From IMG/VR virus record IMGVR_UViG_2541047918_000003: a DNA stretch of 47,928 bases; one strand, written 5' to 3'. The notes below the pieces were generated by a model. It ran no database searches, had not been told where the DNA came from, and saw only the letters and a list, made by a program, of their open reading frames with translations. This document shows positions 25,009 through 40,775 of this stretch, piece after piece. A program made the translations under genes and the position numbers. Within the stretch, counting starts at the first letter, position 1, and each line of letters starts with the position of its first letter. Source of the stretch: a virus (lineage: Duplodnaviria; Heunggongvirae; Uroviricota; Caudoviricetes).

Positions 25009-25014
25009 GCATGT

Positions 25015-25044
25015 AAAAAGGCCCCAACACATGTGCGTGGGGCC
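25015..25044 (-). terminator. minus-strand intrinsic terminator downstream of the tRNA cluster
   Basis: GGCCCCA/TGGGGCC stem followed by T5 on the minus strand. Confidence 0.45.
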
Positions 25045-25283: not shown

Positions 25284-25360
25284 TGGCGCGTTGTACTGGA
25301 TTCGAACCAGTGACCGATTGCTTAGAAGGCAATTGCTCTGTCCGGTTGAGCTAACAACGC
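25284..25360 (-). tRNA. argO: tRNA-Arg (anticodon UCU)
   Basis: 77 nt; cloverleaf; anticodon loop CTTCTAA; T-arm GGTTCGAATCC; encoded CCA. Confidence 0.85.
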
Positions 25361-25373
25361 AGGGTACAGATAA

Positions 25374-25450
25374 TGGACCGCCATCGAGGACTCGAACCCC
25401 GCGCAACCAGCTTCGAAGGCTGGCGCTCTATCCTGATGAGCTAATGGCGG
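25374..25450 (-). tRNA. argN: tRNA-Arg (anticodon UCG)
   Basis: About 77 nt; anticodon loop CTTCGAA; T-arm TTCGAGT; CCA end; exact 5' end uncertain by 1 nt. Confidence 0.75.
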
Positions 25451-25457
25451 TATGTGA

Positions 25458-25533
25458 TGGTGGCCCTTGCTGGATTTGAACCAGCGACCTGGCGATTATG
25501 AGTCGCTCGCTCTCACCACTGAGCTAAAGGGCC
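25458..25533 (-). tRNA. ileZ: tRNA-Ile2 (anticodon CAU, lysidine type; would also score as Met)
   Basis: 76 nt GGCCCTTTAGCTCAGTGG...CTCATAA...GGTTCAAATCC...GGGCCACCA; close to E. coli ileX as recalled. Confidence 0.85.
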
Positions 25534-25573
25534 GGGAGCCGCATAATAACGACGCGTAATTAATTCTTCAATA

Positions 25574-25852
25574 TCATCCGTTCTGGCTGACTAAATCCTG
25601 TACTTCCCGAACCGTCTGCTCAAAACGTTCAGTCTCCAGCTCAACGCCAATTGCACGACGCCCGAGCGCCAGTGCCGCTTTCACTGTCGAACCCGACCCC
25701 ATGAAAAAATCTGCAATCAGGTCACCCGGACGACTGCTAGCGCTGATTATCTGCTGCAGCATTTCTGCCGGTTTTTCGCACGGATGTTTCCCGGGATAGA
25801 ACTGCACCGGTTTATGCGTCCAGACATCGGTATACGGCACCTGCGCCGTCAC
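25574..25852 (-). pseudogene. C-terminal remnant of an N6/N4 DNA methyltransferase
   Basis: 92 aa with the C-terminal motif (...KPAEMLQQIISASSRPGDLIADFFMGSGSTVKAALALGRRAIGVE); N-terminal catalytic part absent; GTG start only 58 nt below tR'. Confidence 0.6.
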
Positions 25853-25910
25853 GCCAAAATACCGCCGCAGTCGGCATTCACAACCACCAGCGCATTTAAC
25901 GTTCAGCCAT

Positions 25911-25933
25911 AAAAAAACCCGCTCGCGGCGGGT
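25911..25933 (-). terminator. late terminator tR' downstream of Q
   Basis: ACCCGC CGCGA GCGGGT followed by T7 on the minus strand, about 70 nt after the Q stop. Confidence 0.6.
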
Positions 25934-26003
25934 TTAAGCTGTGTGGCGAAGTAACCACTCTTAACATACTGACATACTTTTTGCGGACCGCACTAATCAT
26001 TTT

Positions 26004-26384
26004 TTACTTTTTTAGCAGCCAGTCGTCCATCTCCAGTCTTACCCCCAGCACAGACAAACATCCGTCAATAAACCCTTCGGCTATCTGCATCTCAATTCGT
26101 ATTGCTTTTTCGCTTTTCTTTCTCGTCCTGGCTATCTGTCTTTTTGATATTCGCAACAAATAATGAGCAATGAGAAGCGAATACTCCTCAGGTTTTTTCT
26201 GCTTCAGACGAGCAAGACAGTTTTCAATGATAAGTCCGTCATCATCGCAGCAGGCCGGACGTGGTTTAGTGGCAGATGGTAAAAGTCCTTTGAATCCGGC
26301 AGCGATCGGAGAATAGTCCACCCCGGTGTTACCACTTGCAGCCCATGCCCCCCAGCGTTCAAGAACCATCTGAATATCACGCAT
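26004..26384 (-). CDS. late antiterminator Q (small Q family, QuuD-like)
   Basis: Starts MRDIQMVLERWGAWAA...; ATG at 26384 with GGAGAAAG upstream; the track ORF starts at an upstream TTG. Confidence 0.7.
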   Translation of the reverse strand: MRDIQMVLERWGAWAASGNTGVDYSPIAAGFKGLLPSATKPRPACCDDDGLIIENCLARLKQKKPEEYSLLIAHYLLRISKRQIARTRKKSEKAIRIEMQIAEGFIDGCLSVLGVRLEMDDWLLKK

Positions 26385-26401
26385 CAACTTTCTCCACAAA
26401 A

Positions 26402-27421
26402 TCAGGACAGCACACCAATCGCCAGCGCGCGATCGATAAAACGAAATATCAGCTCCAGTTGGGAGCCATACTTCTCTTCAAATGCCACGGTATCCGCATG
26501 CAGTTCGTCATGGTGTTTTCTGCACAAAGGCAACACAAAAAGGTCATGCGCTTTTGTTCCCATTCCACCCTGACCGTGACCTATCAGGTGGTGGGGATCA
26601 TCAGCGGGCTTTCCACAACATGCACACGGCTGTGTCTTAACCCAGCGCGTGTACTTTTCATTAACCCAGCGGCGACGTTTTGGGCGTAACATAAAAGACT
26701 CCGGCGACTCCGGATCCACTTTCAGCGCCAGCACCTTTTTCGCCTTATCCCGGATGATGCTGGTGGCAGGAACCGAAGGCACAAGGTCACTTTCCCGGGT
26801 AACAGTCGGCACAACAGGCTTCGGTAATCTCAGTGCCTTACGGGCTGCACTTTCCGGTAAGGCATCCGCCAGATCATTACGAATCAGCCACCAGCACAGT
26901 TCCGGCATTGTCACAACGTGACTGTCATCAAAACCGAGATCCCGACGCACAACAGACAACACCCAGCGGGCACAGTTATCCGTTGCCCTTGATTCCAGCC
27001 GTTCCGTGAACTGATCGCGCAGCTGATTATCGCAGTGCCAGCACAGACGGATTGCACCCGGAGCGTGTCGCATTGTGGTCATGTTCTCGCTGTGCCAGTC
27101 GGAATGAGGCCACTGGCAGCCTTTTTCACGAAGTAACCAGCTTTCAAGACATTCCACGCCACCAGCACGACGGATCACTGCCTCATTGCGGAACACGGCC
27201 CGAACGGCAGGATCATCCGCCAGCGGTTGTGATGCCGCCGGAACGGCACCGCTGGCGAAAGATGAATAACGTTCCGGCTCAGGCTCCAGCAGGACACGCC
27301 CCTGCATAAACAGGGGCATCAGCTCTGAACCGGGCCTGAACAATACAATCCCCATACGCGGGGCAATTTCAGGGGTCAGCAGTGCTCTCACGGTCACCTC
27401 AGCAAACGATATTGAATGCAT
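26402..27421 (-). CDS. DUF968-family protein (YdfU-like) with C-terminal Cys/His cluster
   Basis: 339 aa; C-terminal CACCGKPADDPHHLIGHGQGGMGTKAHDLFVLPLCRKHHDELH; Q-proximal position. Confidence 0.55.
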   Translation of the reverse strand: MHSISFAEVTVRALLTPEIAPRMGIVLFRPGSELMPLFMQGRVLLEPEPERYSSFASGAVPAASQPLADDPAVRAVFRNEAVIRRAGGVECLESWLLREKGCQWPHSDWHSENMTTMRHAPGAIRLCWHCDNQLRDQFTERLESRATDNCARWVLSVVRRDLGFDDSHVVTMPELCWWLIRNDLADALPESAARKALRLPKPVVPTVTRESDLVPSVPATSIIRDKAKKVLALKVDPESPESFMLRPKRRRWVNEKYTRWVKTQPCACCGKPADDPHHLIGHGQGGMGTKAHDLFVLPLCRKHHDELHADTVAFEEKYGSQLELIFRFIDRALAIGVLS

Positions 27422-27442
27422 ACAGAGAAAAAAACTCAGTCA

Positions 27443-27700
27443 TCACGCAGTAAACTCCTTCACCAGTATTTCAAACTGGCTTACCTGTCCTTCCAGTTCC
27501 GCCACGCAATCCACCAGCTCATCCACCGCCTTTTGTGTGCGGTGTTTTGCCTGCAGCAGATCACGAAGCGCCGGAGTAAGCTGCTTGCGGAGCGTATCTT
27601 TTTTCACGCTCGTTTTTTCCATCTGTTCAGCACAACGAAGCATCTCCTGCGCCTGCCGACGAAGTTGTTCCGGTGAAACAGTGATTGTTCTGTTGTTCAA
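27443..27700 (-). CDS. hypothetical coiled-coil protein
   Basis: 85 aa; TTG start overlapping the DnaB-like stop; no strong RBS. Confidence 0.3.
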   Translation of the reverse strand: MNNRTITVSPEQLRRQAQEMLRCAEQMEKTSVKKDTLRKQLTPALRDLLQAKHRTQKAVDELVDCVAELEGQVSQFEILVKEFTA

Positions 27701-29097
27701 AATAAACGCTCCGTTTTACTGCCCGACATGCGGTTATTGCTGTATCTGCGCGGATTGCCCGGCGTCATGGGAGTGGAAAGAACCCGGGCACTCTCCTGGT
27801 CCACAGGCAGAAAATGTCCGTTATGAAAACGCCGGTAAATGGTCCCGAGTGTGCCATTACGCTGTTTCGTGATGTTGATTTCTGCTATGCCTCTGGCCTG
27901 TGTATCCGGGTTATACACCTCATCCCTGTAAAGCATCAGAATGATATCGGCATCAGCCTCTATTTCCCCGGAGTTTTTCAGGTCTGAGTTCATGGGACGT
28001 TTATTGGGTCTGGATTCCACGCCTCGGGAGAGCTGGCTCAGAGCAATCAGCGGGAAACCGCCGGATTTTGCCAGGCTTTTAAGTCCCTTTGAGATTTCCC
28101 CCACAGCAAGGTCGTGACGCCCCGTGCTGCGGGTTTTAATCAGACCGAGGTAATCGACCACCACCAGCGCCGTTTCCGGGTGTTTCATCCGGTGGTGCTT
28201 CGTGGTTGCACATATCTCATCAATGGTCAGGTTTGCCTGATCCACCATCCAGATATTACGCCCCGTCATTCGTCCCACGCCCTGCGAGAAACGCGCCCAG
28301 TCTTCATCTTCAAAACGGGCAACAGACTTAAGACGGGATACCGGCATTCCACCGGCAGCAGACACCATACGTTCACCAATCTGGATGTTCGCCATCTCCA
28401 TGGTGAACAGAAGCACGCCATGCCCCTGCTCAGTCACCTTGTCGATGATGTCCAGCGCAAGTTCGGTTTTCCCCATCGAAGGACGGGCGGCAATGAATAC
28501 CAGGTCTCCGGGCTCCATACCGCCCGTTTTTGCGTCCAGTTCATCAATACCGGTCATCAGCGCCCTGGATTTCTCCAGTCCCTGATTGCGGCATTCAACA
28601 CGGTCGACCACTTCCGGAAGGACATCATCAATGTGAACCGGCTGAATGACGCCCTTTCCGGTCGACAGTGAGGCCATCATGTTCTGCACATCCTTCAGGG
28701 CATCCTCGGCTGCTTCACAGGTATACGCATCACGTAAATTCTGTAATGCTTCAGTCAGTGTTTTTTCTGCATCGCGCAGTGCGGCATTGCGCCGCAACGC
28801 TGCGACATAGTGCTCCAGTGAAGACTTCACCCAGGTTTTGCGTCCGGTGTCGGTAATCACCGGGGCAAGTTCCGGCATCTCATTGCACAGCAGTACGGGG
28901 TCAATGACGCCGGATATGCTAGCCTGTCTGCAAATCCCCGCGTAAATATCCCGGTACTGACGCACAAAAAATACATCCGCCGGAAGTGTGGCCAGAATAT
29001 CCATCACTTCCGGATCGGCCCCACGCAGAAAAAACGCACCGATGACAGCGCCTTCCAGGTCATCGTTACGCCATGCCGGGGTGTTCTGGCTGGTCAT
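27697..29097 (-). CDS. replicative DNA helicase (DnaB family)
   Basis: 466 aa; Walker A ARPSMGKTELALD; RecA-like C-terminal domain. Confidence 0.85.
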   Translation of the reverse strand: MTSQNTPAWRNDDLEGAVIGAFFLRGADPEVMDILATLPADVFFVRQYRDIYAGICRQASISGVIDPVLLCNEMPELAPVITDTGRKTWVKSSLEHYVAALRRNAALRDAEKTLTEALQNLRDAYTCEAAEDALKDVQNMMASLSTGKGVIQPVHIDDVLPEVVDRVECRNQGLEKSRALMTGIDELDAKTGGMEPGDLVFIAARPSMGKTELALDIIDKVTEQGHGVLLFTMEMANIQIGERMVSAAGGMPVSRLKSVARFEDEDWARFSQGVGRMTGRNIWMVDQANLTIDEICATTKHHRMKHPETALVVVDYLGLIKTRSTGRHDLAVGEISKGLKSLAKSGGFPLIALSQLSRGVESRPNKRPMNSDLKNSGEIEADADIILMLYRDEVYNPDTQARGIAEINITKQRNGTLGTIYRRFHNGHFLPVDQESARVLSTPMTPGNPRRYSNNRMSGSKTERLF

Positions 29098-29993
29098 GCG
29101 GCAACACCTCCGATACGAGAACGGTAGCTGGGCCAGTTAAACGACAACCAGTTGCGCCCGCCATCGGTGATTCTGTCGGCAATCCGGGGACTGATGAACG
29201 CCCACAATTCTTCCGGTGAAAGGTTGCTGATCAGGATAGTTGGCAAAATACCCTCATACCGGGCATTGATAATTTCCTGCAAAATGGCCATTTCAGCCGC
29301 ACTGCCAAACTGAACGCCGACTTCGTCGACAATCAGCAAATCCAGTGACGCATAATGCTCAATGACGTCATCCGCTGTTTTTTCACTGTCATTCCGCCAG
29401 CAGTTTTTCACAGCCCGGGTAAGGCGCATCACGTCGGTGATCTCCACACTGGCCAGATAGTTACGGATGATGTGTTTTGCCATTGATACCGCCAGATGAT
29501 TTTTCCCGGTACCGCAACTGCCGGTCATAACAAGACTGGTACCGTTCTCCAGCATATCTGGCCAGTTCTCCGCATAGCGGCGACAGGCCGCAAGATTTCT
29601 GGCTGCGTCAGGATTAACCTCCAGATAATTATCAAACTCGCAGTCCCGAAAACGCAGAGCAATTCCGGCGTTATCAGTCAGTTCTTCCGCCTTGAGGGAC
29701 GACAGTTCCATGGTCAAATCACTGGCCTCAGCGATCAAGCAGTCAGGGCAGCATGAAATTTTTTCTCTGTCCTCGCCATTACGATCGATCCACACCAGTA
29801 TATGCGTACGATATTTACCGTGTTTTTCGCAATATCCGCGACCTTCACGCATCAGGCAGGAACGATAAGGCCATGGCTTTTCGCCCTTCTGAGCAAATGC
29901 AATCTCTGCCCGTAACTCATCCATTTCTGCCCGTAACTCATCCATTCGCGCCTGTAGTCTTGTTTGTTTCTCACGTTGGTCAATCGTCATCAT
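29094..29993 (-). CDS. DnaC-like helicase loader (IstB-like AAA+ ATPase)
   Basis: Walker A GSCGTGKNHLA; Walker B LLIVDEVG; ATG at 29993 with GAGGTGA upstream. Confidence 0.8.
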   Translation of the reverse strand: MMTIDQREKQTRLQARMDELRAEMDELRAEIAFAQKGEKPWPYRSCLMREGRGYCEKHGKYRTHILVWIDRNGEDREKISCCPDCLIAEASDLTMELSSLKAEELTDNAGIALRFRDCEFDNYLEVNPDAARNLAACRRYAENWPDMLENGTSLVMTGSCGTGKNHLAVSMAKHIIRNYLASVEITDVMRLTRAVKNCWRNDSEKTADDVIEHYASLDLLIVDEVGVQFGSAAEMAILQEIINARYEGILPTILISNLSPEELWAFISPRIADRITDGGRNWLSFNWPSYRSRIGGVAA

Positions 29994-30003
29994 CGCTGTC
30001 ACC

Positions 30004-30930
30004 TCAGAATGTCAATTTGTTACTGGATTTACCGAATTTGTCAGACATGGCTCCCAGGCCAGCCAGGACATCGACCTGTCGCTGTCGCCCACCTCCGTGA
30101 GCGGCTGGCTGTTGCCAGTAATCTTCGAAGTGACGATCGGGTCCAAAGAACGTCGCAGCCTGCTTCACGAACTGTGTGCCGGTATTTCCTGTAGCACGTA
30201 CCCAGGCGGCATACCGCTTCACGCCATCAAGCATGGTCTCCGGTTTTATTCCCTCCCTGATACGGGCTTTCCAGGCTTTGAAGGCTGCTGATTTGGAATT
30301 GCCACCAGCACGTTTGGGATATTCCTGCCAGGCCTGTTCAAATTCCGGTGAATATTCCTGTCTGGCAGAACGCGCTGGTGCAGACGCGTCAGCGGATGCG
30401 CCAATATCTTGCGGTTCATGTTTTGAATTTACTGGTGGTTCATGTTTTAAACCTTGTGGATCTGGAGTCAGATTCTGAAGGGTCAAACGCGTATTTTTGC
30501 CAGAATCTGAAGGGTCAAACACGCCTGAACATACAGATTCTGACGGTTCAGATTTTGAAGGTTCAGAATCTGAAGGGTCACGTAATACTGAAAGTCTGCG
30601 CTGCTGTTTCAGTTCTGCAACCTTATCCCGCTCAGTTCTGGCAAGCTGCTCAAGCCGATCAGCATTCAGATGATAAAGATTGGACGTATTACGGTTACCT
30701 TTGCGGCGTGACTGACGCGTCAGCCAGCCATCAGCCTCCAGTTCGGAGATTGCCGTTCTGACTGTACTTTCTCCCAATCCAAGCTGTCGACATATGGTTT
30801 CAACACCCGGGTAGCACACCCCGTCATCATTCGAATAATCAGCCAGGCGCGCCATAATCATCAGTTTTGCACCTTTGACGCCATATGCTGCGCATGCATC
30901 CCAGACATTACCGAGGATCTTGCTACTCAT
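30004..30930 (-). CDS. replication initiator (O-like) with internal origin iterons
   Basis: 308 aa; N-terminal winged-helix-like region; low-complexity linker encoded by the iterons; heads the replication operon. Confidence 0.7.
   Translation of the reverse strand: MSSKILGNVWDACAAYGVKGAKLMIMARLADYSNDDGVCYPGVETICRQLGLGESTVRTAISELEADGWLTRQSRRKGNRNTSNLYHLNADRLEQLARTERDKVAELKQQRRLSVLRDPSDSEPSKSEPSESVCSGVFDPSDSGKNTRLTLQNLTPDPQGLKHEPPVNSKHEPQDIGASADASAPARSARQEYSPEFEQAWQEYPKRAGGNSKSAAFKAWKARIREGIKPETMLDGVKRYAAWVRATGNTGTQFVKQAATFFGPDRHFEDYWQQPAAHGGGRQRQVDVLAGLGAMSDKFGKSSNKLTF
30468..30580. repeat. origin iterons inside the initiator gene
   Basis: Five copies of a CAGAWTCTGAAGGGTCA-like 17-20-bp motif; a nearby GGTTCATGTTTT pair at 30410-30450. 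Confidence 0.6.
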
Positions 30931-31151
30931 ACGACACCTCCCAGACGCTTAAACATTTTTCCGGACTGAAACGCCACCAGCGGGTAACTCAGGGTATAAG
31001 TACGCCCCTGCACCTGGCAGACAACCTTCTGACTTTCTGCATTGACCAGGCAAACCCGCAGAACGAGGCCGTTGCTGGTGGTAAACCACTGCCCCACTCG
31101 GGGGCAACGGTTGTATCGGTGATACAGGGAATTAACGATGTGGCGGATCAT
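30927..31151 (-). CDS. hypothetical small protein (74 aa)
   Basis: ATGA overlaps with both neighbours. Confidence 0.4.
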   Translation of the reverse strand: MIRHIVNSLYHRYNRCPRVGQWFTTSNGLVLRVCLVNAESQKVVCQVQGRTYTLSYPLVAFQSGKMFKRLGGVV

Positions 31152-31342
31152 GGACGCACCTCCGCCGTAGTTACGTATTTAACCGGGCTACCTTTCATTG
31201 AGATGGTTTCACACATCTCTGCCGCTTTCAGTTCCGCTGTTTTTCTGGATTTATAGCGACGGTGCCAGACAGATACATCCGTGCGAACTGATACATCGTT
31301 TCTGTATTCCGTAGTGGAGATGATGATTTCGTAACTAATCAT
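31148..31342 (-). CDS. hypothetical small protein (64 aa)
   Basis: Strong AAGGAGG RBS; ATGA overlaps with both neighbours. Confidence 0.45.
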   Translation of the reverse strand: MISYEIIISTTEYRNDVSVRTDVSVWHRRYKSRKTAELKAAEMCETISMKGSPVKYVTTAEVRP

Positions 31343-32205
31343 GGGCGAACCTCCTTGTCAGAACCATTCAGCCTAGAATCAACAAGTGCAGCGCCAAAAA
31401 CAGCATCACCAACACGGTCGTACAGTTTGCTAGCCAGCGGAGATTCAACGGCCTTAAGCATTGGATAAAGCTGGCTTGTCCAGATTTGATGGATTTCACG
31501 CAAATGCAGGTATACGCCTCTGGCGTTTCGTGCGACAGCTGACATATCAGACGCATCGGCACCTGATAAACTCTTCTCCATCAGGTTAAAGGCGTTGATG
31601 TATGCCTCTTTGAACCGGGCAGCACGTTTACCCGTGAAACCCATAGCAAGAAATGCAAAACCGTCTCGTGTGATTTGATAGCAAGGGAGCTTGCGTGTAC
31701 CGCCGTTCGGTTGATTTACCGAAATCGATGTCTCCGCAAAATTGCGGGCACAAAACTCTGGAGAACAATCCAAAATGCGAATCTTTTTCAGAACATCGTC
31801 ATGACGTTTAGAGAAGAAGTCAGCAACAGCCAAAGAAGATGTAACAGCCTGACCATCAACGATGGCAATTTCAGGTTGAGAGAGGGTTGGGAGAGTAGTC
31901 ATAGTGACAGCCCCGGTAGTCAGTTTTTTAGAAAACTCACCACATGGGACGCCAATCACAGAGGTGGTGAGACGTACAGGGTTGGCGTTACCGGAGACTA
32001 CCGAACCCGGCCCGACCGAAGTCGGCCCTGTACGCCCCACCATAATTTGGGCGTAGCAATGCTCATGACACGAAAAAACCGCATGAGCGCGGTTATGCTC
32101 AGTAATCAATTTCAGGACGCCAATCCCGGCACCCGCTTTATAAGGTGCGGAGACAGTGTAACGTCCCGAAATTGCAGAATCAATATTTGGTCTTGAAATG
32201 ATCAT
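31339..32205 (-). CDS. Rha-family phage regulatory protein; start uncertain (alternative ATG at 31902)
   Basis: Central motif AIVDGQAVTSSLAVADFFSKRHDDVLKKIR; no strong RBS at any candidate start. Confidence 0.55.
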   Translation of the reverse strand: MIISRPNIDSAISGRYTVSAPYKAGAGIGVLKLITEHNRAHAVFSCHEHCYAQIMVGRTGPTSVGPGSVVSGNANPVRLTTSVIGVPCGEFSKKLTTGAVTMTTLPTLSQPEIAIVDGQAVTSSLAVADFFSKRHDDVLKKIRILDCSPEFCARNFAETSISVNQPNGGTRKLPCYQITRDGFAFLAMGFTGKRAARFKEAYINAFNLMEKSLSGADASDMSAVARNARGVYLHLREIHQIWTSQLYPMLKAVESPLASKLYDRVGDAVFGAALVDSRLNGSDKEVRP

Positions 32206-32228
32206 ATAGCTGCTGATATCTTTAGAAC

Positions 32229-32314
32229 TGTTCTTGGATGTTTCGGAGCCGTTTTATGCGAAACAGCTCCCCGTTATTGATGTTGAGTGAGCCGGGTTAC
32301 TCCCGGCTTTTTTT
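32229..32314 (+). ncRNA. candidate OOP-like antisense RNA
   Basis: Plus-strand terminator GCCGGG TTACT CCCGGC plus T7 (32291-32314) in a region of minus-strand genes; possible TTGAAA-N18-TATCTT promoter about 85 nt upstream. Confidence 0.3.
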
Positions 32315-33021
32315 CACCGCTGCCAACCAATAACCTGAAATAACCCCATTTTCGGGTGATACCAGCGAGTCCCTCGCGGTTCTGCTTCCTCCATAACCCG
32401 ATAAAAAGCAGCCATAAACGGTTCCACAGCAACAATTGCGCGACGTGACAACAATCCGTCCGGCGTCATGAACTCATGGGTGTCTGTAGGAATCTGATAG
32501 GCGTTCACCAGATTGCGGCATTTATCATCTGACAAACCGGTTTTTGCTTTCAGTTGGCGATATCCGGCATAGCCCTCACGAATAGTGCCCTTTTTAATTT
32601 GCTCGACTGTTTCAGCAACGTGGCTGACTTTTTCTTCCACCTGAGTGATCCGTTTCTGCTGACGAACTGCTTCAAGAGCCATCGCGGCAACCATTTCGAT
32701 TTCGCTCATTGGCTTACGGATCTGTTCTTCCAGTTCGCGCCAGCGATCTACCAGGCGAGCAGTGAATTCAGGACAGAGCTGTGCGACGACAATGATGCTG
32801 TCGCGCTTACCTTGTTCTCCTTCAAACAGGTAATGCTCATATTGAACTTTAAAACCTAAGTTATTGATTCTTTCGGAAACCTCAATTTGAGGAGACCGGA
32901 CAACGCCACCTTTGGCTAATGTTTCAATAGTGCGTTTCACATTGTCATGACGTTTACCCACCAGCTCTGCAATTTCAACGCTGGTCATGGATGCTTTGCC
33001 GTTAAAAATTGCGGTGTTCAT
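32314..33021 (-). CDS. Rha-family phage regulatory protein, antirepressor-like
   Basis: 235 aa; N-terminal motif TSVEIAELVGKRHDNVKRTIETL; AGGAGA RBS. Confidence 0.65.
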   Translation of the reverse strand: MNTAIFNGKASMTSVEIAELVGKRHDNVKRTIETLAKGGVVRSPQIEVSERINNLGFKVQYEHYLFEGEQGKRDSIIVVAQLCPEFTARLVDRWRELEEQIRKPMSEIEMVAAMALEAVRQQKRITQVEEKVSHVAETVEQIKKGTIREGYAGYRQLKAKTGLSDDKCRNLVNAYQIPTDTHEFMTPDGLLSRRAIVAVEPFMAAFYRVMEEAEPRGTRWYHPKMGLFQVIGWQR

Positions 33022-33245
33022 TGTTGGTCTCCTGTGGGCTTGTCATCTTCTGTATTCGCTAGACTTGGGTGTGTATATGGAATGCTCGTATCCAGATGAC
33101 AAAGAATGGCAACATCCTCCGGAACACCTCGCGTTTTCCACTTTCCAACACCTTGACTGCCACGAGGCCTTCCTTTCTTTGGGAACCTGCGACCAATAGC
33201 GGCATTGGTTTTAAATTGAATTTTTAATATTTCATAAAGGGTCAT
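33018..33245 (-). CDS. possible Cro-position early regulator
   Basis: 75-aa basic ORF, first on the minus strand after the operator region; weak RBS; no clear helix-turn-helix. Confidence 0.3.
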   Translation of the reverse strand: MTLYEILKIQFKTNAAIGRRFPKKGRPRGSQGVGKWKTRGVPEDVAILCHLDTSIPYTHPSLANTEDDKPTGDQQ

Positions 33246-33356
33246 TCTTTAGTCTCACACCAGATACTTTGTTATCCAACGATGTTAACCACAGGAACCC
33301 AAAGTATCAAGAAATTCTGTTACTTTAGTATCAACAGCCATGAGAGGAGAAGAAAA
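33246..33356. promoter_or_regulatory. right operator/promoter region (OR-like)
   Basis: 111-bp divergent region between the cro-like gene and cI with repeated GTATCAA/TTGATAC-type half-sites. Confidence 0.5.
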
Positions 33357-34013
33357 ATGAAGTCTTTAGGTGAACGTCTCATCAACGCACGGCAAAAAGC
33401 TGGGTTAACACAAGATGCGTTGGCTAAAAAAGCTGGGGTCACCAGAGTTGCAATCAGTAAAGCCGAGCAAGGCCTTACAAAAAGTTTCAACGGTGACACC
33501 CTTTTTAAAGTTGCAGCTGCACTGCAGTGTTCACCGCAGTGGCTTCAGAACGGAGATGAAAAAGATAAGCATTGGGAAAATAATGTTAAGAGCTGCCCAC
33601 AGAGAGACACAGCATACTCTTACCCTGTAATTAACTGGGTTCAGGCAGGATTATTCGCAACTTCTGGTGATGACTACAACATGTATGATCAGGATAATTG
33701 GAGGCATTCTGTAAAATACGCTGGTGAGAGGGGGTTCTGGCTGGAAGTGCACGGAGACTCAATGACTTCGCCCGTAGGAATAACATTTCCTGAAGGAATG
33801 TCGATCCTTGTCAACCCAGATAAAGAAGTTTTTTCAGGGTGTTACGTCATCGCCAGAAAAAAATCTACCAATGAAGCAACATTCAAAAAATATATTTCTG
33901 AAATGGGAAAGGCGTTTCTAAAGCCCCTTAATCCACAATATCCAATCATAGAAATGGACAATGATTGCGAAATAGTAGGTGTTGTGGTTGATGCCAGGTG
34001 GGATATTTTCTAA
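33357..34013 (+). CDS. cI: CI-like repressor (XRE helix-turn-helix plus S24 LexA-like peptidase)
   Basis: MKSLGERLINARQKAGLTQDALAKKAGV... helix-turn-helix; C-terminal peptidase-like domain; AGGAGA RBS. Confidence 0.85.
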   Translation: MKSLGERLINARQKAGLTQDALAKKAGVTRVAISKAEQGLTKSFNGDTLFKVAAALQCSPQWLQNGDEKDKHWENNVKSCPQRDTAYSYPVINWVQAGLFATSGDDYNMYDQDNWRHSVKYAGERGFWLEVHGDSMTSPVGITFPEGMSILVNPDKEVFSGCYVIARKKSTNEATFKKYISEMGKAFLKPLNPQYPIIEMDNDCEIVGVVVDARWDIF

Positions 34014-34029
34014 CCAGACACAAAACACA

Positions 34030-34100
34030 AAAAGAAACCAAAGTATCAAAAATCACTTGCCACACCTTGATACCTTAGTTACCATAAAACAAAGTTCGTA
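34030..34100. promoter_or_regulatory. left operator/promoter region (OL-like)
   Basis: Inverted GTATCAA ... TTGATAC pair matching the half-site seen in the OR region. Confidence 0.4.
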
Positions 34101-34116
34101 ACTGAGGTATCATCTC

Positions 34117-34533
34117 ATGATCAATAAAGCTACAACTCTTGACTGTCTCGAAGAACTGAAAAACCTCGGCAGCCTCATTACACTAATAGCAAAAGCAACA
34201 CCTGATGCTACGCTCTCTAGCGATATAGAGTCATGCGCAGGACTGGCATGGGATATGACAAATAGCATATCCAGAAAGCTATCGTCAGCAATGCTTTTAC
34301 AGAACAAAAATTCTGCAATCAACAACCGTCTTCGCACCCAACGCGAAGCCTGCGGCTTAACAACCGCCGAACTCGCCAGGCTGCTCGATCTCGATGAAGA
34401 AATTATCATCCAGTGGGAGAGCGGAGAGTATGAACCAACTATCAGTATGCTTATCCCACTGGCAAATATTCTTGGCTGCGATCCGATGTGGCTGTTAACT
34501 GGCGAAACGGCAGCAAAGGATATCTGCGCATGA
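34117..34533 (+). CDS. helix-turn-helix (XRE-type) protein with unknown N-terminal domain
   Basis: 138 aa; C-terminal GLTTAELARLLDLDEEIIIQWESGEYEPTISMLIPLANILGCDPMWLL; GAGGT RBS; first gene after the OL-like region. Confidence 0.6.
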   Translation: MINKATTLDCLEELKNLGSLITLIAKATPDATLSSDIESCAGLAWDMTNSISRKLSSAMLLQNKNSAINNRLRTQREACGLTTAELARLLDLDEEIIIQWESGEYEPTISMLIPLANILGCDPMWLLTGETAAKDICA

Positions 34534-34772
34534 AAAACTGTGATGCTTACCATATTTGTCTCATTGGTGAATTGCTTGATTTCATACAAAAAAGCACTGC
34601 GCGCAATAATAAAAATATAACATATGGTGATCTGGTAATAATTTCAGAGGATATAAAGAGCATCGCTCTTAAATTCAAGAGCGACGCGAGTATTGATGAC
34701 GCTATTTACGCTTATCTTGCGAAAATAATTGACGGATCCAAAATCCAGCCTCTGGATGAACCTCGTCAGTGA
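34530..34772 (+). CDS. hypothetical protein (80 aa)
   Basis: ATGA overlap with the upstream gene; AT-rich. Confidence 0.4.
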   Translation: MKNCDAYHICLIGELLDFIQKSTARNNKNITYGDLVIISEDIKSIALKFKSDASIDDAIYAYLAKIIDGSKIQPLDEPRQ

Positions 34773-34929
34773 AAAACTCCTTTGATGAAGATGAGAACTG
34801 CTTCATAAACTTTACTTTATCTTCAGGTGAAACTACCTGACGAATTAATGCGGAGATAGCAACTTTGTGCCAAATTAATTCTTTTTTGAGTTCTGAAATC
34901 TCTTTTTCGAGTTGCTCTGCGTTAATCAT
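34702..34929 (-). CDS. hypothetical coiled-coil protein (75 aa), convergent with 34530-34772
   Basis: Strong GGAGG RBS 5 nt before the ATG at 34929; overlaps the neighbour's 3' end by 71 nt. Confidence 0.4.
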   Translation of the reverse strand: MINAEQLEKEISELKKELIWHKVAISALIRQVVSPEDKVKFMKQFSSSSKEFFTDEVHPEAGFWIRQLFSQDKRK

Positions 34930-35108
34930 TTATCCTCCATTGAGAGCTGAATTGAAAATGGGGACCAACACGCGGCTACGTGTGGTCGTGCGCCGGACAC
35001 GGATAAGCATCCGGTAACTGATTATCAATCATTGCGGAAACAGTCTCAATATGAAAACACTTCTGAGACTCGCTATATAGCAGGACATATAAGTCAGCTG
35101 AGGAAGCC

Positions 35109-35474
35109 ATGAAAAAGTTCGAAAACATAACTGTTCTCCATGTTGATGACTTTGATTATACAAACCCGGAACTTCTCCCGGAGGTTGTAAAGGCAATAGA
35201 TGTTGCCGATATAGTGATTAGAGGAAAGAGAATTGTCAAAAACAGGCTCGCATGCACTTCAGAAGCAATGACAGAAACAACCTCACAGCAAGATAATTAC
35301 GAAGGCATTTGTCTGGAGCCTGATTCATTTGCGGTAAATGTTTATCATTTATTGCATGCAACACAGGTATTACATATGTCCAGTAATCACGAAACGAAAA
35401 CACTCGGCAGCGAAATTCTGAATTTTGCATGTGAGTATGCAAAAACTGCTGCCGAAAAAGAATTAGCGCAATAA
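35109..35474 (+). CDS. hypothetical protein (121 aa)
   Basis: GAGGAAG RBS; possible hairpin plus T-run after the stop. Confidence 0.5.
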   Translation: MKKFENITVLHVDDFDYTNPELLPEVVKAIDVADIVIRGKRIVKNRLACTSEAMTETTSQQDNYEGICLEPDSFAVNVYHLLHATQVLHMSSNHETKTLGSEILNFACEYAKTAAEKELAQ

Positions 35475-35552
35475 CAACAAATATGCTCTGAACGTTTATT
35501 GCGGTTTTATCGCCGGGGATTGTTACAATCTTAATCCACAGGAGGATTTATT

Positions 35553-35666
35553 ATGACTTTTATAAAGAATATGGCATCACACAAGACCGCCTGTCTTATT
35601 GCACAATACGGTGAAAATTACATGCATATTGCCTGCTTATTTCTGCGTAAAGCATACGGGAAATAA
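35553..35666 (+). CDS. candidate 37-aa leader peptide
   Basis: ATG preceded by AGGAGG; stop 3 nt before the next ATG; too short for the ORF track. Confidence 0.3.
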   Translation: MTFIKNMASHKTACLIAQYGENYMHIACLFLRKAYGK

Positions 35667-35669
35667 CAA

Positions 35670-36029
35670 ATGACACATGAACCCATTAATACATATCGTC
35701 GCCGTATAGCTGTTGCAGCACTCCATCGAATAAAACGTAAAACAGGTGGTGATCTGCTTATTGTTGACCTTCTGGATGGGAACATTACGACCATAGAAAT
35801 AACAGAACAGTTTATAAACCAGTTGCTGTTGCGCTTTGAAGATATTACCCGTGGTGAATTGGGTCGAGTGGAGGGTGAAACAGAATTCCGAACTGCATAC
35901 CAGAATGCCATCGGGATTAATCAACATACTGAATACCAGGCTGAAACCGGAAAGTTAATTATAGACAACCTTTTACAAGAGGTTATTGATTACGCGAAAG
36001 AAAAATATATCAGCGGAGGAATTAACTGA
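35670..36029 (+). CDS. hypothetical protein (119 aa)
   Basis: First gene of a four-gene overlapping operon. Confidence 0.5.
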   Translation: MTHEPINTYRRRIAVAALHRIKRKTGGDLLIVDLLDGNITTIEITEQFINQLLLRFEDITRGELGRVEGETEFRTAYQNAIGINQHTEYQAETGKLIIDNLLQEVIDYAKEKYISGGIN

Positions 36030-36244
36030 TGGCTAATTTATCCCCTGTATCTGTTGTGCACGAAAAAGTGCAGATCGTTATGACAATTGAAAATGGCCAG
36101 GTAACAGATGTCTGCAAAGTCCGCGATGGAGAGCTGATTGCCAGCATGGATACATTCATATGGCTGGCAGAAAGAGCGGGGTATCAGATAACAGCACCTG
36201 CTCAGGAGGAAACCAGTGACATTAACAGCAACGCGAATTCCTGA
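36029..36244 (+). CDS. hypothetical protein (71 aa)
   Basis: GGAGG RBS; start overlaps the upstream stop. Confidence 0.45.
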   Translation: MANLSPVSVVHEKVQIVMTIENGQVTDVCKVRDGELIASMDTFIWLAERAGYQITAPAQEETSDINSNANS

Positions 36245-36434
36245 GTGGGTCCACCAGCAGGCGTTGCTGGTCCTGCGGCGGTACAGATGCCGACGTATAT
36301 TCCCGCATCGGATACAGCGCAACGGATATCTCAGTCTGAAGGTTAACCGTCGCTGGCGGCTGTTATCGAAAGACGACGGCCGGAACTGGGAAATAATGAG
36401 TCATGAACGTTATTCGGGAGAAATAAAGAAATGA
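36216..36434 (+). CDS. hypothetical basic protein (72 aa)
   Basis: GTG start with AGGAGG RBS; Arg-rich; overlaps both neighbours. Confidence 0.4.
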   Translation: MTLTATRIPEWVHQQALLVLRRYRCRRIFPHRIQRNGYLSLKVNRRWRLLSKDDGRNWEIMSHERYSGEIKK

Positions 36435-36823
36435 TCGACAACCGCACCGCCAGCGCCATTGACCAGGCATTACAGAAACATGATACACCCGTCGGCCCGT
36501 TATTTTTTGTAACACATCACGGAAGAACAAAAAAATGCCTCACTCGAAAAACGGCAATTCGTTACCTGGCATTCTTTATGACCACCCGCGCTTTTGAACG
36601 TTCAGGATTCCGACAACGCCATCCTGACAAGCGTTTTATCTTCAACGGGAATGAAATATGGAAACGTGGAGAATCAACCACAGAGTACACCCGCGCACAC
36701 CAGCGAACAATCAGACGACTGCGCAGACTCATCGCCAGGAAACAGTATACAGAAAAATGGTTCAGAAAATATGACACATGGAGCGCCGGATATTACGAAC
36801 TGATGGCAACAAAACCATTCTGA
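36431..36823 (+). CDS. hypothetical basic protein (130 aa)
   Basis: ATGA overlap with the upstream gene; Arg/Lys-rich C-terminus. Confidence 0.5.
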   Translation: MIDNRTASAIDQALQKHDTPVGPLFFVTHHGRTKKCLTRKTAIRYLAFFMTTRAFERSGFRQRHPDKRFIFNGNEIWKRGESTTEYTRAHQRTIRRLRRLIARKQYTEKWFRKYDTWSAGYYELMATKPF

Positions 36824-36883
36824 CGTAAACGAAATTAACCATGACGCAATTAAATAAGGCAAGCTGAATACAGCAGGAGGACC

Positions 36884-37072
36884 ATGAACATTTATTTCAG
36901 AATAGTTATATCACTGGCAATTATCGCATGTATTTACGGATTGCTCGTCCCGTTTCTGATATCAATGAAGGATACGGTAGCGGTGATTTCTGGCTTTGCA
37001 CTGACGTTTCTAACCCCGCCATGTATTTATACCATTTATAAGGGGCTTTCTTTCACTAAGGATAAAAGATGA
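36884..37072 (+). CDS. small membrane protein with two predicted transmembrane helices
   Basis: 62 aa; AGGAGG RBS; ATGA overlap with the SPFH gene. Confidence 0.5.
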   Translation: MNIYFRIVISLAIIACIYGLLVPFLISMKDTVAVISGFALTFLTPPCIYTIYKGLSFTKDKR

Positions 37073-37896
37073 AAAAAATTATTTTTTCTTTAGCCATTGT
37101 TCTGCCTGCCATTGGCCTTGTCGGTTGTGATCGTGTTGAGCCTGGTAATGTGGGCATCAAAGTCAACAAACTTGGCGACGACAAAGGCGTCGGTGAAGTG
37201 GTCGGTGTTGGTCGCTACTGGACAGGCTGGAACACTGAAGTTTATATCTTCCCGACCTTTAAGCAGATGAAGACCTACGATGATCCATTCAGTTTCCAGA
37301 TGAGCGATGGAACAACCATTGGTTACCACATCGGAGTAGCCTACAAGGTTGATCCATCCAAAGTTACCACAGTCTTTCAGACCTACCGCAAAGGCGTGGA
37401 CGACATTACCGACACCGACCTGCGCCAGAAGATAGCCGACGCACTCAACCGACTGGCCAGCAAAATGACCACCGACAAATTTATCGACGGCGGCAAGTCT
37501 GAGCTGCTGGATGCAGCTCTTAAAGACATTCAGGAAGAAATGACGCCCATCGGTATTCAGGTAATAAGCCTCTCATATGTGGGTAAGCCGGAGTACCCGC
37601 CTACTGTTATCGACAGCATTAATGCCAAAGTCACGGCGAACCAGAAAACTCTGCAACGCGAGCAGGAAGTAAAACAGCGCGAAGCGGAAGCCAACATGTT
37701 GCGCGCGGAAGCTGCCGGACAGGCTGATGCGATTCGCACAAAAGCCCAGGCTGAAGCCGATGCTATTCGTTTACGCGGTGAAGCTCTGCGTCAGAACCCC
37801 GGTGTTATGGAGCTGGAAGCCATCAATAAATGGAACGGCACGCTGCCGCAATACATGACCAGCGGTGCCAATACACCATTTATCCAGGTTAAATAA
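37069..37896 (+). CDS. SPFH (band 7 / prohibitin-like) lipoprotein
   Basis: 275 aa; signal peptide with lipobox LVGC; SPFH-like core; coiled-coil Ala/Glu/Gln-rich C-terminal region. Confidence 0.75.
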   Translation: MKKIIFSLAIVLPAIGLVGCDRVEPGNVGIKVNKLGDDKGVGEVVGVGRYWTGWNTEVYIFPTFKQMKTYDDPFSFQMSDGTTIGYHIGVAYKVDPSKVTTVFQTYRKGVDDITDTDLRQKIADALNRLASKMTTDKFIDGGKSELLDAALKDIQEEMTPIGIQVISLSYVGKPEYPPTVIDSINAKVTANQKTLQREQEVKQREAEANMLRAEAAGQADAIRTKAQAEADAIRLRGEALRQNPGVMELEAINKWNGTLPQYMTSGANTPFIQVK

Positions 37897-37967
37897 CTTA
37901 ATATGCCCGGCAGGCCGTCGGGCTAAGGGAAAAGCAGATAAACACTCATAATACTCAACCGCAAATA

Positions 37968-38309
37968 ATGAACTATGACCCAAATCTGACGTCATGCGGA
38001 CGCATGGCGAAACAAACCGTTCGATTAACTTTCGGGCAATGGGAATACCGCGAAACATTCGAAGTCACTGTCGGTGGCAACCTGACCGGACTCGATGTTA
38101 TCAGTTGCGCTATTGAAAGCCTGTACGCAACGCTGCCTTATGAAGAAGTCGAGGATGAGCGTACAGGGGAAACAGATATCATGGCCACCATTAATATTGG
38201 CGAACTGACATGCCAGGATGAAGACCTGTCCGGAGAGCTCTGGCTTGCCGGGATGCTTATCTCAGCAGAAATTATCAGTATTGAACCCGCTACAAACATA
38301 CGGCTCTGA
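37968..38309 (+). CDS. hypothetical acidic protein
   Basis: 113 aa; weak RBS; start uncertain. Confidence 0.35.
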   Translation: MNYDPNLTSCGRMAKQTVRLTFGQWEYRETFEVTVGGNLTGLDVISCAIESLYATLPYEEVEDERTGETDIMATINIGELTCQDEDLSGELWLAGMLISAEIISIEPATNIRL

Positions 38310-38340
38310 AGTTCTCACTATTCAGAGAGCAGGAGAAAAA

Positions 38341-38583
38341 ATGTTCGCTTTGATTAATCAGGGACAACTGTATACCGACAGTGCCGGTTACCCGGTAATA
38401 ATTATTCGCTGCATAAACAACACTGTGTTGTACAGAAGAATTGATGGGCGAACACAGTCAGTAAAAATAAACGATTTCAATGAACTGTTTGAACGGATTG
38501 ATCACCAGGAATACCGACAAATTCTGGCAGAAACAGAGCAGGAGGCTCATCTGAAAAAATTACGGGCCATGAAAAGGAAGTAA
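38341..38583 (+). CDS. hypothetical protein (80 aa)
   Basis: AGGAG RBS directly before the ATG at 38341. Confidence 0.45.
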   Translation: MFALINQGQLYTDSAGYPVIIIRCINNTVLYRRIDGRTQSVKINDFNELFERIDHQEYRQILAETEQEAHLKKLRAMKRK

Positions 38584-38586
38584 AGA

Positions 38587-38733
38587 ATGAATAAAGCGTT
38601 TGAGCTATGGGTGCGCCAGCGTTACGGCAATCGCTATGACCTGACGCGAGATGTTGACGGCTTCTACTGTCGTGAAATTGTGAAACGAATGTTTGAAGTG
38701 TGGTGCCACTGCCGTGGGCTGAGTGTTGTGTGA
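38587..38733 (+). CDS. candidate 48-aa protein directly upstream of xis
   Basis: MNKAFELWVRQRYGNRYDLTRDVDGFYCREIVKRMFEVWCHCRGLSVV; AGGAAG RBS. Confidence 0.3.
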   Translation: MNKAFELWVRQRYGNRYDLTRDVDGFYCREIVKRMFEVWCHCRGLSVV

Positions 38734-38741
38734 GGTAATAC

Positions 38742-38978
38742 ATGGGCAATGTGATTCAACTGGCTCCCAATGAATGGGTTTGTGAAAGCGTTCTTATCGC
38801 AATTACCGGGCTCAAACCAGGCACAATTCTTCGGGCCCGGAAAGAATGCTGGATGGTTGGAAGAGAGTATATTCACGTATCACCAGACGGTAATCCAAAG
38901 CCTTCCAGTGAATGTATGTATAACAGAAAAGCAATAGATGCCTGGGTCGCCTCAATGAAAAACAAACAACCCAGGTGA
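38742..38978 (+). CDS. xis: excisionase (Xis-like)
   Basis: 78 aa; immediately upstream of int; GAGG RBS. Confidence 0.65.
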   Translation: MGNVIQLAPNEWVCESVLIAITGLKPGTILRARKECWMVGREYIHVSPDGNPKPSSECMYNRKAIDAWVASMKNKQPR

Positions 38979-39033
38979 TTTAATATCATGAAATATGTAA
39001 GCTCGTATCGCTCTTGGGCGTCTGGAGGTATCG

Positions 39034-40347
39034 ATGGATAAAGTCAAATATCCAACAGGCGTCGAAAACCACGGCGGCACATTACGCATCTGGTTTAATT
39101 TTAAAGGTAAACGTGTCAGGGAAAATCTTGGTGTCCCTGACACTGCCAAGAACAGGAAGATCGCCGGGGAACTGCGGACATCAGTATGTTTTGCCATCCG
39201 CACAGGAAGCTTTGATTATGCTGCACAGTTCCCTGACTCCCCCAACCTTCAGGCTTTTGGGGTAAGTAAAAAAGAAATTACGGTGAAGGAACTTGAAGAA
39301 AAGTGGCTGGATCTGAAACGAATGGAAATCTCTGCAAATGCATTCAATCGCTATGAATCCGTTGCAAGAACGATGGTTCCGAAAATTGGAGGCAGTAAAC
39401 TGGTGTCATCGGTAACCAAAGAGGAATTGCTGTATATCAGGAAAGATTTGCTGACCGGGTATCAGAATTCAACGAAAAACAAAGCAGCAGCAAAAGGACG
39501 GAGCGTCGTTACTGTAAATTATTACATGACGACAATCGCTGGAATGTTTCAGTTTGCTGCAGATCACGGTTACTTAGAAGCAAATCCCTTCCAGGGAATT
39601 AAGCCTCTTAAAAGAGCCAGGGCAGAGCCAGATCCGCTAACTCGTGACGAATTTATTCGCCTGATAGATGCTTGCCGACATCAGCAGACGAAAAACCTGT
39701 GGTCATTGGCTGTGTACACAGGAATGCGTCACGGTGAACTGGTCTCCCTGGCCTGGGAAGATATCGATCTGAAGGCAGGAACAATTACCATCAGGCGCAA
39801 TTATACGAAACTTGGTGAGTTCACTCTACCGAAAACTGAAGCAAGCACAAACAGGGTTGTGCACCTTATCCAGCCCGCTATCAGTGTCCTGAAAAATCAG
39901 GCTGAAATGACAAGACTGGGTAAGCAGTACAACATCAAGGTGCAACTACGTGAATATGGACGTTCAGTGAACCATGAATGTACTTTCGTGTTTAACCCTC
40001 AAGTGGTTAGAAAAAGCGAACAGGTAGGTTTTGTCTACAAAGTCGATTCTGTAGGTGACTCATGGGAAACAGCCATTAAGCGTGCAGGGATCAGGCATCG
40101 AAAGGCATACCAGTCACGACACACTTATGCGTGCTGGTCATTATCTGCCGGAGCAAACCCAAGCTTCATTGCCAGCCAGATGGGCCATGCAAGTGCCCAG
40201 ATGGTATTCAATGTATACGGAGCATGGATGACTGACAGCAATGCAGAACAGATCGCAATGCTGAATCAGAAGCTGACAGATTATGTCCCAATGATGCCCC
40301 ATAGTCACCAAAGTGACACCAGAGGCTTATTAAAATCAGTAAGTTAA
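39034..40347 (+). CDS. int: tyrosine integrase
   Basis: 437 aa; conserved Arg, His-x-x-Arg (SRHTYACW) and C-terminal Tyr; GGAGG RBS; stop abuts the host gene remnant. Confidence 0.9.
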   Translation: MDKVKYPTGVENHGGTLRIWFNFKGKRVRENLGVPDTAKNRKIAGELRTSVCFAIRTGSFDYAAQFPDSPNLQAFGVSKKEITVKELEEKWLDLKRMEISANAFNRYESVARTMVPKIGGSKLVSSVTKEELLYIRKDLLTGYQNSTKNKAAAKGRSVVTVNYYMTTIAGMFQFAADHGYLEANPFQGIKPLKRARAEPDPLTRDEFIRLIDACRHQQTKNLWSLAVYTGMRHGELVSLAWEDIDLKAGTITIRRNYTKLGEFTLPKTEASTNRVVHLIQPAISVLKNQAEMTRLGKQYNIKVQLREYGRSVNHECTFVFNPQVVRKSEQVGFVYKVDSVGDSWETAIKRAGIRHRKAYQSRHTYACWSLSAGANPSFIASQMGHASAQMVFNVYGAWMTDSNAEQIAMLNQKLTDYVPMMPHSHQSDTRGLLKSVS

Positions 40348-40373
40348 TCCTTAATACCCGTCATGTTAACTGC

Positions 40374-40775
40374 GTGGAGGGTAACACCACGCTTTATGCC
40401 CTGCCGAAACCCGAGGTTGTCCTGCGCTGGCGTGAGCAGACCACAGATGACTTCCGCTTCTGTTTTAAGTTTCCGGCGACCATTTCGCATCAGGCAGCAT
40501 TACGGCATTGCGATGATTTAGTGACTGAATTTTTGACCCGCATGTCACCGTTGGCTCCGCGCATTGGACAATACTGGCTGCAACTGCCTGCCACATTCGG
40601 CCCACGGGAGCTGCCTGCGCTTTGGCATTTTCTCGATTCTCTTCCCGGTGAATTTAATTATGGGGTGGAAGTCCGCCATCCACAGTTTTTCGCCAAAGGG
40701 GAAGAGGAACAAACGCTTAATCGCGGTTTACATCAGCGCGGCGTTAATCGGGTGATTTTTATTAGACACGTTTAA
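40374..40775 (+). pseudogene. yecE: internal fragment of a DUF72-family host gene (yecE-like), truncated at both ends
   Basis: 133-aa ORF with a DUF72-like pattern (EGNTTLYALPKPEVVLRW...FRFCFKFPATISH...); frame is open upstream into the int 3' end; sequence diverges at about 40757. Confidence 0.6.

Follow-up and report, generated by a model that had tools for sequence, protein, structure and literature searches.

The stretch of DNA considered here, the 47,928-nucleotide record IMGVR_UViG_2541047918_000003 of IMG/VR (Caudoviricetes; hereafter the window), carries a prophage in which the gene for a 62-residue membrane protein is followed, ahead of the excisionase and integrase genes, by that of a 275-residue lipoprotein with an SPFH domain. 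It was recently shown that SPFH proteins (prohibitin, stomatin, flotillin and HflK/C) build membrane cages, the purpose of which is debated. The locus raises the question of what a phage does with such a protein, and whether its small neighbour belongs to it. The initial annotation had suggested that the pair might bias the lysis-lysogeny decision through the host protease FtsH. In our analysis the pair is best described as a phage-specific SPFH variant, lipid-anchored and prohibitin/HflK-like, with a two-helix partner in the place of NfeD, which probably has its effect at the inner membrane, early in the infection. That hairpin and lipoprotein form one membrane module with a general job in the infected cell is a reading we hold with about even confidence. 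Phage SPFH genes appear in the literature as annotations (for example in PMC1524935), and studies of the hairpin partner, the fusions described below or the function were not found in a literature search of incomplete coverage, in which absence is no proof. The module is real, widespread and long annotated; new here is the hairpin as a conserved partner of the SPFH gene.

An SPFH protein with a lipoprotein signal

Both genes lie on the + strand and are present in the list of open reading frames (ORFs) and in the raw sequence as the initial annotation had described them. The 62-aa ORF, which matches PHROG 1130, occupies positions 36884–37072, and the 275-aa ORF, a homologue of L05 from phage phiP27 belonging to PHROG 200, occupies 37069–37896, so that the stop of one and the start of the other share an ATGA (37069–37072). 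The overlap would imply translational coupling of the two genes, and overlap or close abutment of the pair is also seen in phiP27, P88, a P1 variant, N4, BcepF1 and phiE125. A Shine-Dalgarno-like GGAGGA (36876–36881, +), read off the sequence 2 nt 5′ of the hairpin ATG, is the putative ribosome-binding site.

The 275-aa protein begins with MKKIIFSLAIVLPAIGLVGC, followed by Asp-Arg, which makes a lipoprotein signal peptide (37069–37128, +) ending in the lipobox L-V-G-C with Cys20, and then Asp21-Arg22. The lipoprotein signal proposed earlier is borne out in the family alignments, where the lipobox Cys is conserved in at least 90% of the sequences. The SPFH fold that had also been claimed, the absence of which was to count as a refutation of the earlier proposal, was found with both sequence and structure methods. 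The Pfam Band_7/SPFH domain (PF01145) matches aa 22–208 with a score of 109.3 bits (cut-off 23.6; E = 2.9e-31), and PHROG 200, annotated "lipoprotein", matches with E = 9e-115. Many GenBank records label their copies "putative serine protease", for which no ground was seen, Band_7 being the only Pfam domain found; some phage records use "prohibitin family protein" instead.

An AlphaFold2 monomer model, computed with 111 diverse relatives, has a mean predicted local distance difference test score (pLDDT) of 90.3. It consists of an alpha/beta core (aa 20–175, pLDDT mostly above 90), a single 65-residue helix (aa 178–242), a short helix (aa 244–253) and a C-terminal tail of low confidence. Pfam, AlphaFold and Foldseek together delimit the SPFH core to aa 22–176 (37132–37596, +). 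The long helix (37600–37794, +) is rich in Ala, Glu and Gln; it corresponds to the coiled-coil wall of SPFH cages and aligns with the coiled-coil region of HflK and of prohibitin-2 (6iqe). The tail carries the signature W255-x-G257-x-x-P260 (KWNGxLP; 37831–37848, +), in which W255 and G257 are common to all of the 111 relatives and P260 to at least 90% of them, in a part of the model where pLDDT falls below 60. A floppy and conserved tail of this kind is compatible with a cap formed between subunits, as far as a monomer model can indicate.

When the model was compared with the PDB using Foldseek, full-length matches were obtained to HflK/HflC (7vhq, 9cz2, 7wi3), prohibitin (8rrh, 9o9z), erlin and stomatin, with E-values from 1e-14 to 1e-11. 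There were 70 PDB matches at E ≤ 0.001, and the best 50 of these 70 comprise only SPFH proteins and the major vault protein, which contains an SPFH domain. A single-sequence search has HflK as its top PDB match (E = 2e-4), and a family profile finds PHB1 best (E = 2.4e-10), then PHB2, HflK (2.5e-7), QmcA and HflC. The NCBIfam equivalog models for HflC and HflK are matched below threshold (26.2 bits against 134.4, and 23.6 against 159.4, respectively). Judged by these matches, the protein is a member of the SPFH superfamily from its prohibitin/HflKC side, but is neither HflK nor HflC.

The nearest relatives differ from the phage protein in anchor and in partner. HflK/HflC of E. coli (7vhp, 7vhq, 7wi3, 9cz2) share its SPFH core and long helix (Foldseek E = 2e-14) and lie at the periplasmic face of the inner membrane, which is also the predicted location of the phage protein. 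They are, however, encoded by a K/C gene pair, whereas the phage has a single SPFH gene and the 62-aa hairpin partner; they have an N-terminal transmembrane helix where the phage protein has a lipid anchor, and the helical wall of the phage protein is shorter (275 aa in total, compared with 419 and 334 aa). Prohibitin PHB1/PHB2 (8rrh, 9o9z; Foldseek E = 2.5e-14) is the top profile match over nearly the whole length and is of similar size (272–299 aa), but it forms hetero-oligomers in the mitochondria of eukaryotes, is anchored by an N-terminal transmembrane segment, and has neither lipobox nor hairpin partner. The operons of NfeD and SPFH proteins (for example QmcA-YbbJ, 8z5g) also combine a small membrane protein with an SPFH protein, fusions of the partners occur there too, and QmcA is among the Foldseek and profile matches; the phage hairpin, however, lacks an NfeD/OB-fold domain, and the SPFH domain of QmcA faces the cytoplasm, while that of the phage protein is predicted to be periplasmic. 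The direct homologues are L05 of phiP27 and the unannotated ORF upstream of it (PHROG 200 and 1130), which exist as database annotations only and show no structural difference from the pair.

The hairpin partner and its natural fusions

The 62-aa protein is laid out as a first transmembrane helix (approximately aa 7–26), a five-residue turn (S27–T31), a second transmembrane helix (approximately aa 32–52) and a basic C-terminal tail. Pro23 and Ser27, both at the periplasmic end of the first helix, are invariant in an alignment of 19 hairpin sequences. Scans against Pfam and NCBIfam gave no match; PHROG 1130, annotated "membrane protein" and filed in the category "moron, auxiliary metabolic gene and host takeover", matches with E = 3.6e-23. 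An NfeD protein, which the operon arrangement could suggest, was considered for the hairpin and rejected on the grounds of the empty Pfam and NCBIfam scans and of a structure limited to two helices with short tails. An Rz/Rz1-type spanin was likewise rejected for the pair, as the membrane protein has a periplasmic turn of only five residues, the lipoprotein is a 275-aa SPFH protein, and the lysis genes lie approximately 16 kb away on the other strand.

Of 80 related viral contigs, 79 preserve the hairpin ORF intact, and its codon differences are synonymous in 330 cases and non-synonymous in 163. This is a rough sign of purifying selection, as the 80 contigs are near-identical loci and their alleles are not independent. 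Homologous ORFs of 62–80 aa lie directly 5′ of the SPFH gene, usually overlapping it, in the P2-like phage P88, in a P1 variant, in an SSU5-like phage-plasmid and in coliphage N4. A hidden Markov model (HMM) of the hairpin also finds it 5′ of that gene in a 142-kb Salmonella phage (E = 2e-16), in a Bruynoghevirus (3e-7), in an Alcaligenes N4-like phage (1e-5) and in BcepF1 (1e-4), with a weak signal in phiE125 and in a crAss-like phage. Because of the PHROG 1130 match, the intact ORF with its excess of synonymous differences and the homologues 5′ of SPFH genes elsewhere, the 62-aa ORF is, on comparative grounds, no chance ORF and a genuine conserved partner of the SPFH gene.

The two partners are also found fused. 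A scan of 1.84 billion representative proteins with the SPFH family gave 3,023 clusters when the threshold was E ≤ 0.001, of which 225 reach E ≤ 1e-30. Approximately 20 of the top 150 clusters are 320–390 aa long, and their N-terminal extension aligns without gaps to the stand-alone hairpins, so that the order along the chain is hairpin, signal-like hydrophobic segment, lipobox and SPFH domain. An HMM built from six stand-alone hairpins only detects the extension in 16 of the 150 representatives (E ≤ 1e-3) and gives no match to the reversed sequences. In the AlphaFold model of one fused homologue (P0143; pLDDT approximately 85), helices at 2–27, 32–51 and 58–73 precede the SPFH core. Its gene adjoins that of a PDDEXK exonuclease among many small ORFs on the same strand, and by this gene content the contig looks like the early region of a phage. 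The initial annotation had treated the two genes of the window as a true pair, and both the homologous hairpins upstream of SPFH genes and these fusions agree with it. In one metagenomic representative (P0153, 344 aa) the hairpin homology follows the SPFH domain, at aa 291–335, with an internal Met ahead of it; these are probably two neighbouring genes in the opposite order, which a frameshift or a mistake in assembly has joined.

Predicted topology, distribution and proposed role

Lysine and arginine together amount, per hairpin sequence, to 1.8 in the N-terminal tail, 0.3 in the five-residue turn and 3.3 in the C-terminal tail. From this positive-inside pattern, the hairpin is predicted to have both ends in the cytoplasm (N-in/C-in) and its turn in the periplasm. 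In the fusions, a cytoplasmic C-terminal end of the hairpin would give the signal-like helix an N-in/C-out orientation, and thereby place the SPFH domain in the periplasm; no other orientation would agree with a hairpin that is followed by a third, signal-like helix and a lipobox. Of 120 close relatives from enterobacteria, at least 95 have Asp-Arg after the lipobox Cys, and Asp at position +2 combined with certain residues at +3 retains E. coli lipoproteins in the inner membrane (PMC9595528). In view of its conservation and of this published rule, Asp21-Arg22 (37129–37134, +), at +2 and +3 of the mature protein, is a candidate Lol-avoidance signal. More remote relatives are anchored by a simple hydrophobic segment at the N-terminus. 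We infer from the charge distribution, the Asp at +2, the anchor variants and the fusions that the SPFH domain lies in the periplasm on the inner membrane, on the same side as HflKC. In an SSU5-like subgroup (P0113–P0119; for example L004 2944–3774), Tyr takes the place of the lipobox Cys (…IIGYDRVEPG…); to judge from the substitution, these copies cannot be lipid-modified, and presumably use the uncleaved N-terminal helix as their anchor.

Relatives of the SPFH protein were found with tblastn in 784 of 50,697 phage records, most of them from virulent phages, and include those of Staphylococcus Kayvirus and of Pseudomonas, Erwinia, Klebsiella, Enterococcus, Burkholderia, Halorubrum and Caulobacter phages; crAss-like and haloarchaeal viruses have SPFH relatives too. 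The complete two-gene module is present in the virulent phages N4, N4-like phages, a Bruynoghevirus, BcepF1 and the 142-kb Salmonella phage, as well as in lambdoid (phiP27), P2-like (P88), P1-like and SSU5-like elements, the last three of which differ in their lysogeny circuits. In the virulent phages examined it sits among early genes: its two genes are the first of BcepF1, it lies at the left end of the Bruynoghevirus, after the RNA polymerase II genes in N4, and in an early region of the 142-kb Salmonella phage. In the N4 isolate OLB145, the gene directly 5′ of the pair (L005 2236–2550) is annotated "superinfection exclusion protein", which is a record label only.

Among 5,426 complete E. 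coli genomes, 571 have the pair or the SPFH gene, at 418 chromosomal and 241 plasmid places, the latter mainly P1-like and SSU5-like phage-plasmids; the pair is found in prophages of enterotoxigenic and Shiga toxin-producing E. coli, Stx2 phages included. The phiP27-, P88- (L002) and P1-type (L003) copies are 86–90% identical in DNA over the body of the SPFH gene, and this identity is lost upstream of approximately codon 18. Since the break falls there, the hairpin gene and the signal peptide are, to judge from the DNA alignments, a separate mosaic unit exchanged together. A reading of the pair as the upl/plp genes of reference phage P1 found no support at the level of near-identical DNA, at which only P1 variants such as RCS47 were matched and the reference P1 is absent from the 23 matches.

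In the reading we favour, the hairpin would be an inner-membrane protein with cytoplasmic ends and a periplasmic turn of five residues, made in step with the lipoprotein by way of the ATGA overlap. It would serve as the membrane-spanning partner, in the role that an N-terminal transmembrane helix has in HflK/C or prohibitin, or that NfeD fills with its membrane part. To our knowledge, every full-length SPFH protein of solved structure forms a ring- or dome-shaped oligomer, and by analogy the periplasmic SPFH domain and the long helix would do the same, most likely fencing off a patch of the inner membrane together with its host proteins. FtsH is possible as the leading candidate client, since the nearest relatives, prohibitin and HflK/C, both cage FtsH-type proteases. 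The module is probably made after infection or induction and not in the quiet lysogen, because no promoter of its own was detected and because it lies in the leftward early operon. A general job in the infected cell is suggested by the retention of the module, for the most part among early genes, in many phages that are strictly virulent. More specifically, and with a good deal less assurance, the pair may form a minimal phage-specific cage that walls off an inner-membrane patch early in infection by very different phages, from temperate coliphages to N4, Burkholderia phages and perhaps crAss-like phages. FtsH or some other membrane machine of the host might be trapped in such a cage, or the cage might seal the site of injection.

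If this is correct, a membrane-walling cage would be a kind of host-takeover device that has so far been described in no phage, and would be of greater interest still if the assembly traps FtsH or another host machine. Phages carry a compact version of SPFH, with relatives in roughly a tenth of the complete E. coli genomes, and a lipid-anchored SPFH protein of 275 residues with a partner of 62 would be the smallest two-component SPFH system. The module is easy to handle in model phages (N4, P2-like and lambdoid); the identity of its client would reveal what phages need to alter in the host inner membrane, and could clarify SPFH cages generally. For the prophage of the window, the hypothesis shifts from lysogeny control to a general function in infection.

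Several points weigh against this reading. The identity to HflK/C is only 15–18%, which makes FtsH as a client an analogy only. Arg at +3 is no classical strong partner of Asp at +2, and some sorting to the outer membrane is possible. No hairpin was recognisable with the HMM beside the SPFH relatives of Kayvirus, of the haloarchaeal virus and of the Caulobacter phage; the partner in Kayvirus is a different, one-helix protein without hairpin homology. The promoter scan was a crude consensus search, which a weak constitutive promoter could escape, and an experiment on any member of the family was not found in the literature search, whose coverage was incomplete. In Pasteurella multocida, moreover, an HflK/C-like prophage protein of 25–35 kDa, PM0222 (Pmorf0222), is reported to be present in the outer-membrane vesicles of the lysogen and to signal through Toll-like receptors 1/2 (TLR1/2), and its deletion is reported to attenuate virulence in mice (PMC9872710). 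By its description, as a prophage-encoded SPFH protein of similar size, it resembles the phage family and may be a member of it; it differs in being reported from vesicles and as a virulence factor.

The mechanism proposed at the outset, in which the phage SPFH protein mimics or antagonises HflKC, alters the degradation of a CII-like regulator by FtsH and thus biases the choice between lysis and lysogeny, can draw on the same kinship. HflK/HflC and the prohibitins, as nearest relatives, partner FtsH-type proteases, the predicted periplasmic orientation is that of HflKC, and the gene lies in the early-left operon, where lambda has cIII, an inhibitor of FtsH. The same module is nevertheless found in strictly virulent phages, the wider SPFH family is mostly found in virulent phages, the P2-like, P1-like and SSU5-like carriers differ in their lysogeny circuits, and the protein falls far below the HflK/HflC equivalog cut-offs (26 bits compared with 134, and 24 with 159). 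Because phages without lysogeny keep the module, the CII bias does not hold as the general role of the family, and we consider the mechanism improbable. Superinfection exclusion or membrane resealing, early in infection or, if expression is leaky, in the lysogen, would fit the early regions of virulent phages, in which exclusion genes are typically found, as well as the label of the N4 neighbour, the filing of PHROG 1130 under moron/host takeover, and the accessory character of a pair that is mobile between phage types, occurs in 571 of the 5,426 E. coli genomes and has mosaic boundaries inside the gene. On the other hand, a PADLOC-DB scan of both proteins and three neighbours gave no match at E ≤ 0.1, homology to known exclusion proteins was absent from the Pfam, PHROG and NCBIfam scans, no own promoter for expression in the lysogen was detected, and the N4 label is an unverified annotation, and we regard this role as unlikely.

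A role in lysis timing or envelope protection is suggested by Staphylococcus Kayvirus, in which the SPFH gene (mbpS) stands between the genes for endolysin and for the transglycosylase Tgl, and MbpS may, as its authors suggest, aid the Sec-dependent export of Tgl (PMC7150955). An SPFH assembly would then stabilise the inner membrane, or organise or sequester holins and secreted lytic enzymes, and so prolong the productive period; the hairpin might be taken for a small two-helix holin from its size and topology. We nonetheless regard such a role as unlikely, given that the lysis cassette of the window prophage is approximately 16 kb off on the other strand, that the module sits among early and not lysis genes in most of the Gram-negative phages examined, and that the Kayvirus partner, a one-helix protein, shows no homology to the hairpin. 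Lysogenic conversion, with the protein as a surface or vesicle lipoprotein acting on the animal host, as is claimed for PM0222, could appeal to the vesicle, TLR1/2 and mouse-virulence results for that protein (PMC9872710), and to the prophages of enterotoxigenic and Shiga toxin-producing E. coli, Stx2 phages among them, that carry the pair. Yet PM0222 is only a possible member of the family, any triacylated lipoprotein triggers TLR1/2, and a role within the infected cell is favoured by Asp at +2, by the inner-membrane hairpin, by the fusions and by the occurrence in virulent environmental phages, which makes this explanation very improbable.

The prophage around the pair

The element is a phiP27-like prophage inserted at yecE. 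The excisionase gene xis (38742–38978, +) and the tyrosine integrase gene int (39034–40347, +) follow the pair on its own strand, as do genes of the DUF5406 and DUF4222 families. L05 of phiP27, in the same place ahead of xis/int, is 97.8% identical in amino acids to the 275-aa protein. A cI-like XRE regulator gene lies upstream on the same strand, and the Cro-side genes are divergent. Because of this arrangement, the early-left position next to xis/int that the initial annotation had given is a fair description. No promoter-like or terminator-like site was found flanking the pair on its own strand in the consensus scan, and the region has as many such sites as would be expected from shuffled sequence; the pair would be co-transcribed with the early-left operon.

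The pair is 100% identical to that of E. coli ATCC 43886, and the remaining window is 91–99% identical to the prophage of this strain. An identity of 98.7% is seen only across 35022–40759; elsewhere, in the part compared (window approximately 19400–35000), it is 91–93% or there is no match. Since the 98.7% match is confined to that segment, the window is, by this comparison, a different and mosaic phiP27-like prophage, distinct from that of ATCC 43886. Directly 3′ of int, the rest of the host gene yecE (DUF72; 40374–40775, +) marks the right junction between prophage and host, and yecN and cmoA come next in the related genome.

Two genes 5′ of the pair, a 72-aa ORF (36216–36434, +) overlaps its neighbours; the RefSeq annotation of the matching prophage calls it "ParE family toxin-like protein". 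On the other strand, three consecutive prophage tRNA genes (25284–25533, −) code for Arg-TCT, Arg-TCG and a tRNA with a CAT anticodon, the last being Met according to ARAGORN and Ile in RefSeq for the related prophage. In that prophage, a gene of the TerB family and a DNA methyltransferase gene adjoin the tRNA genes.

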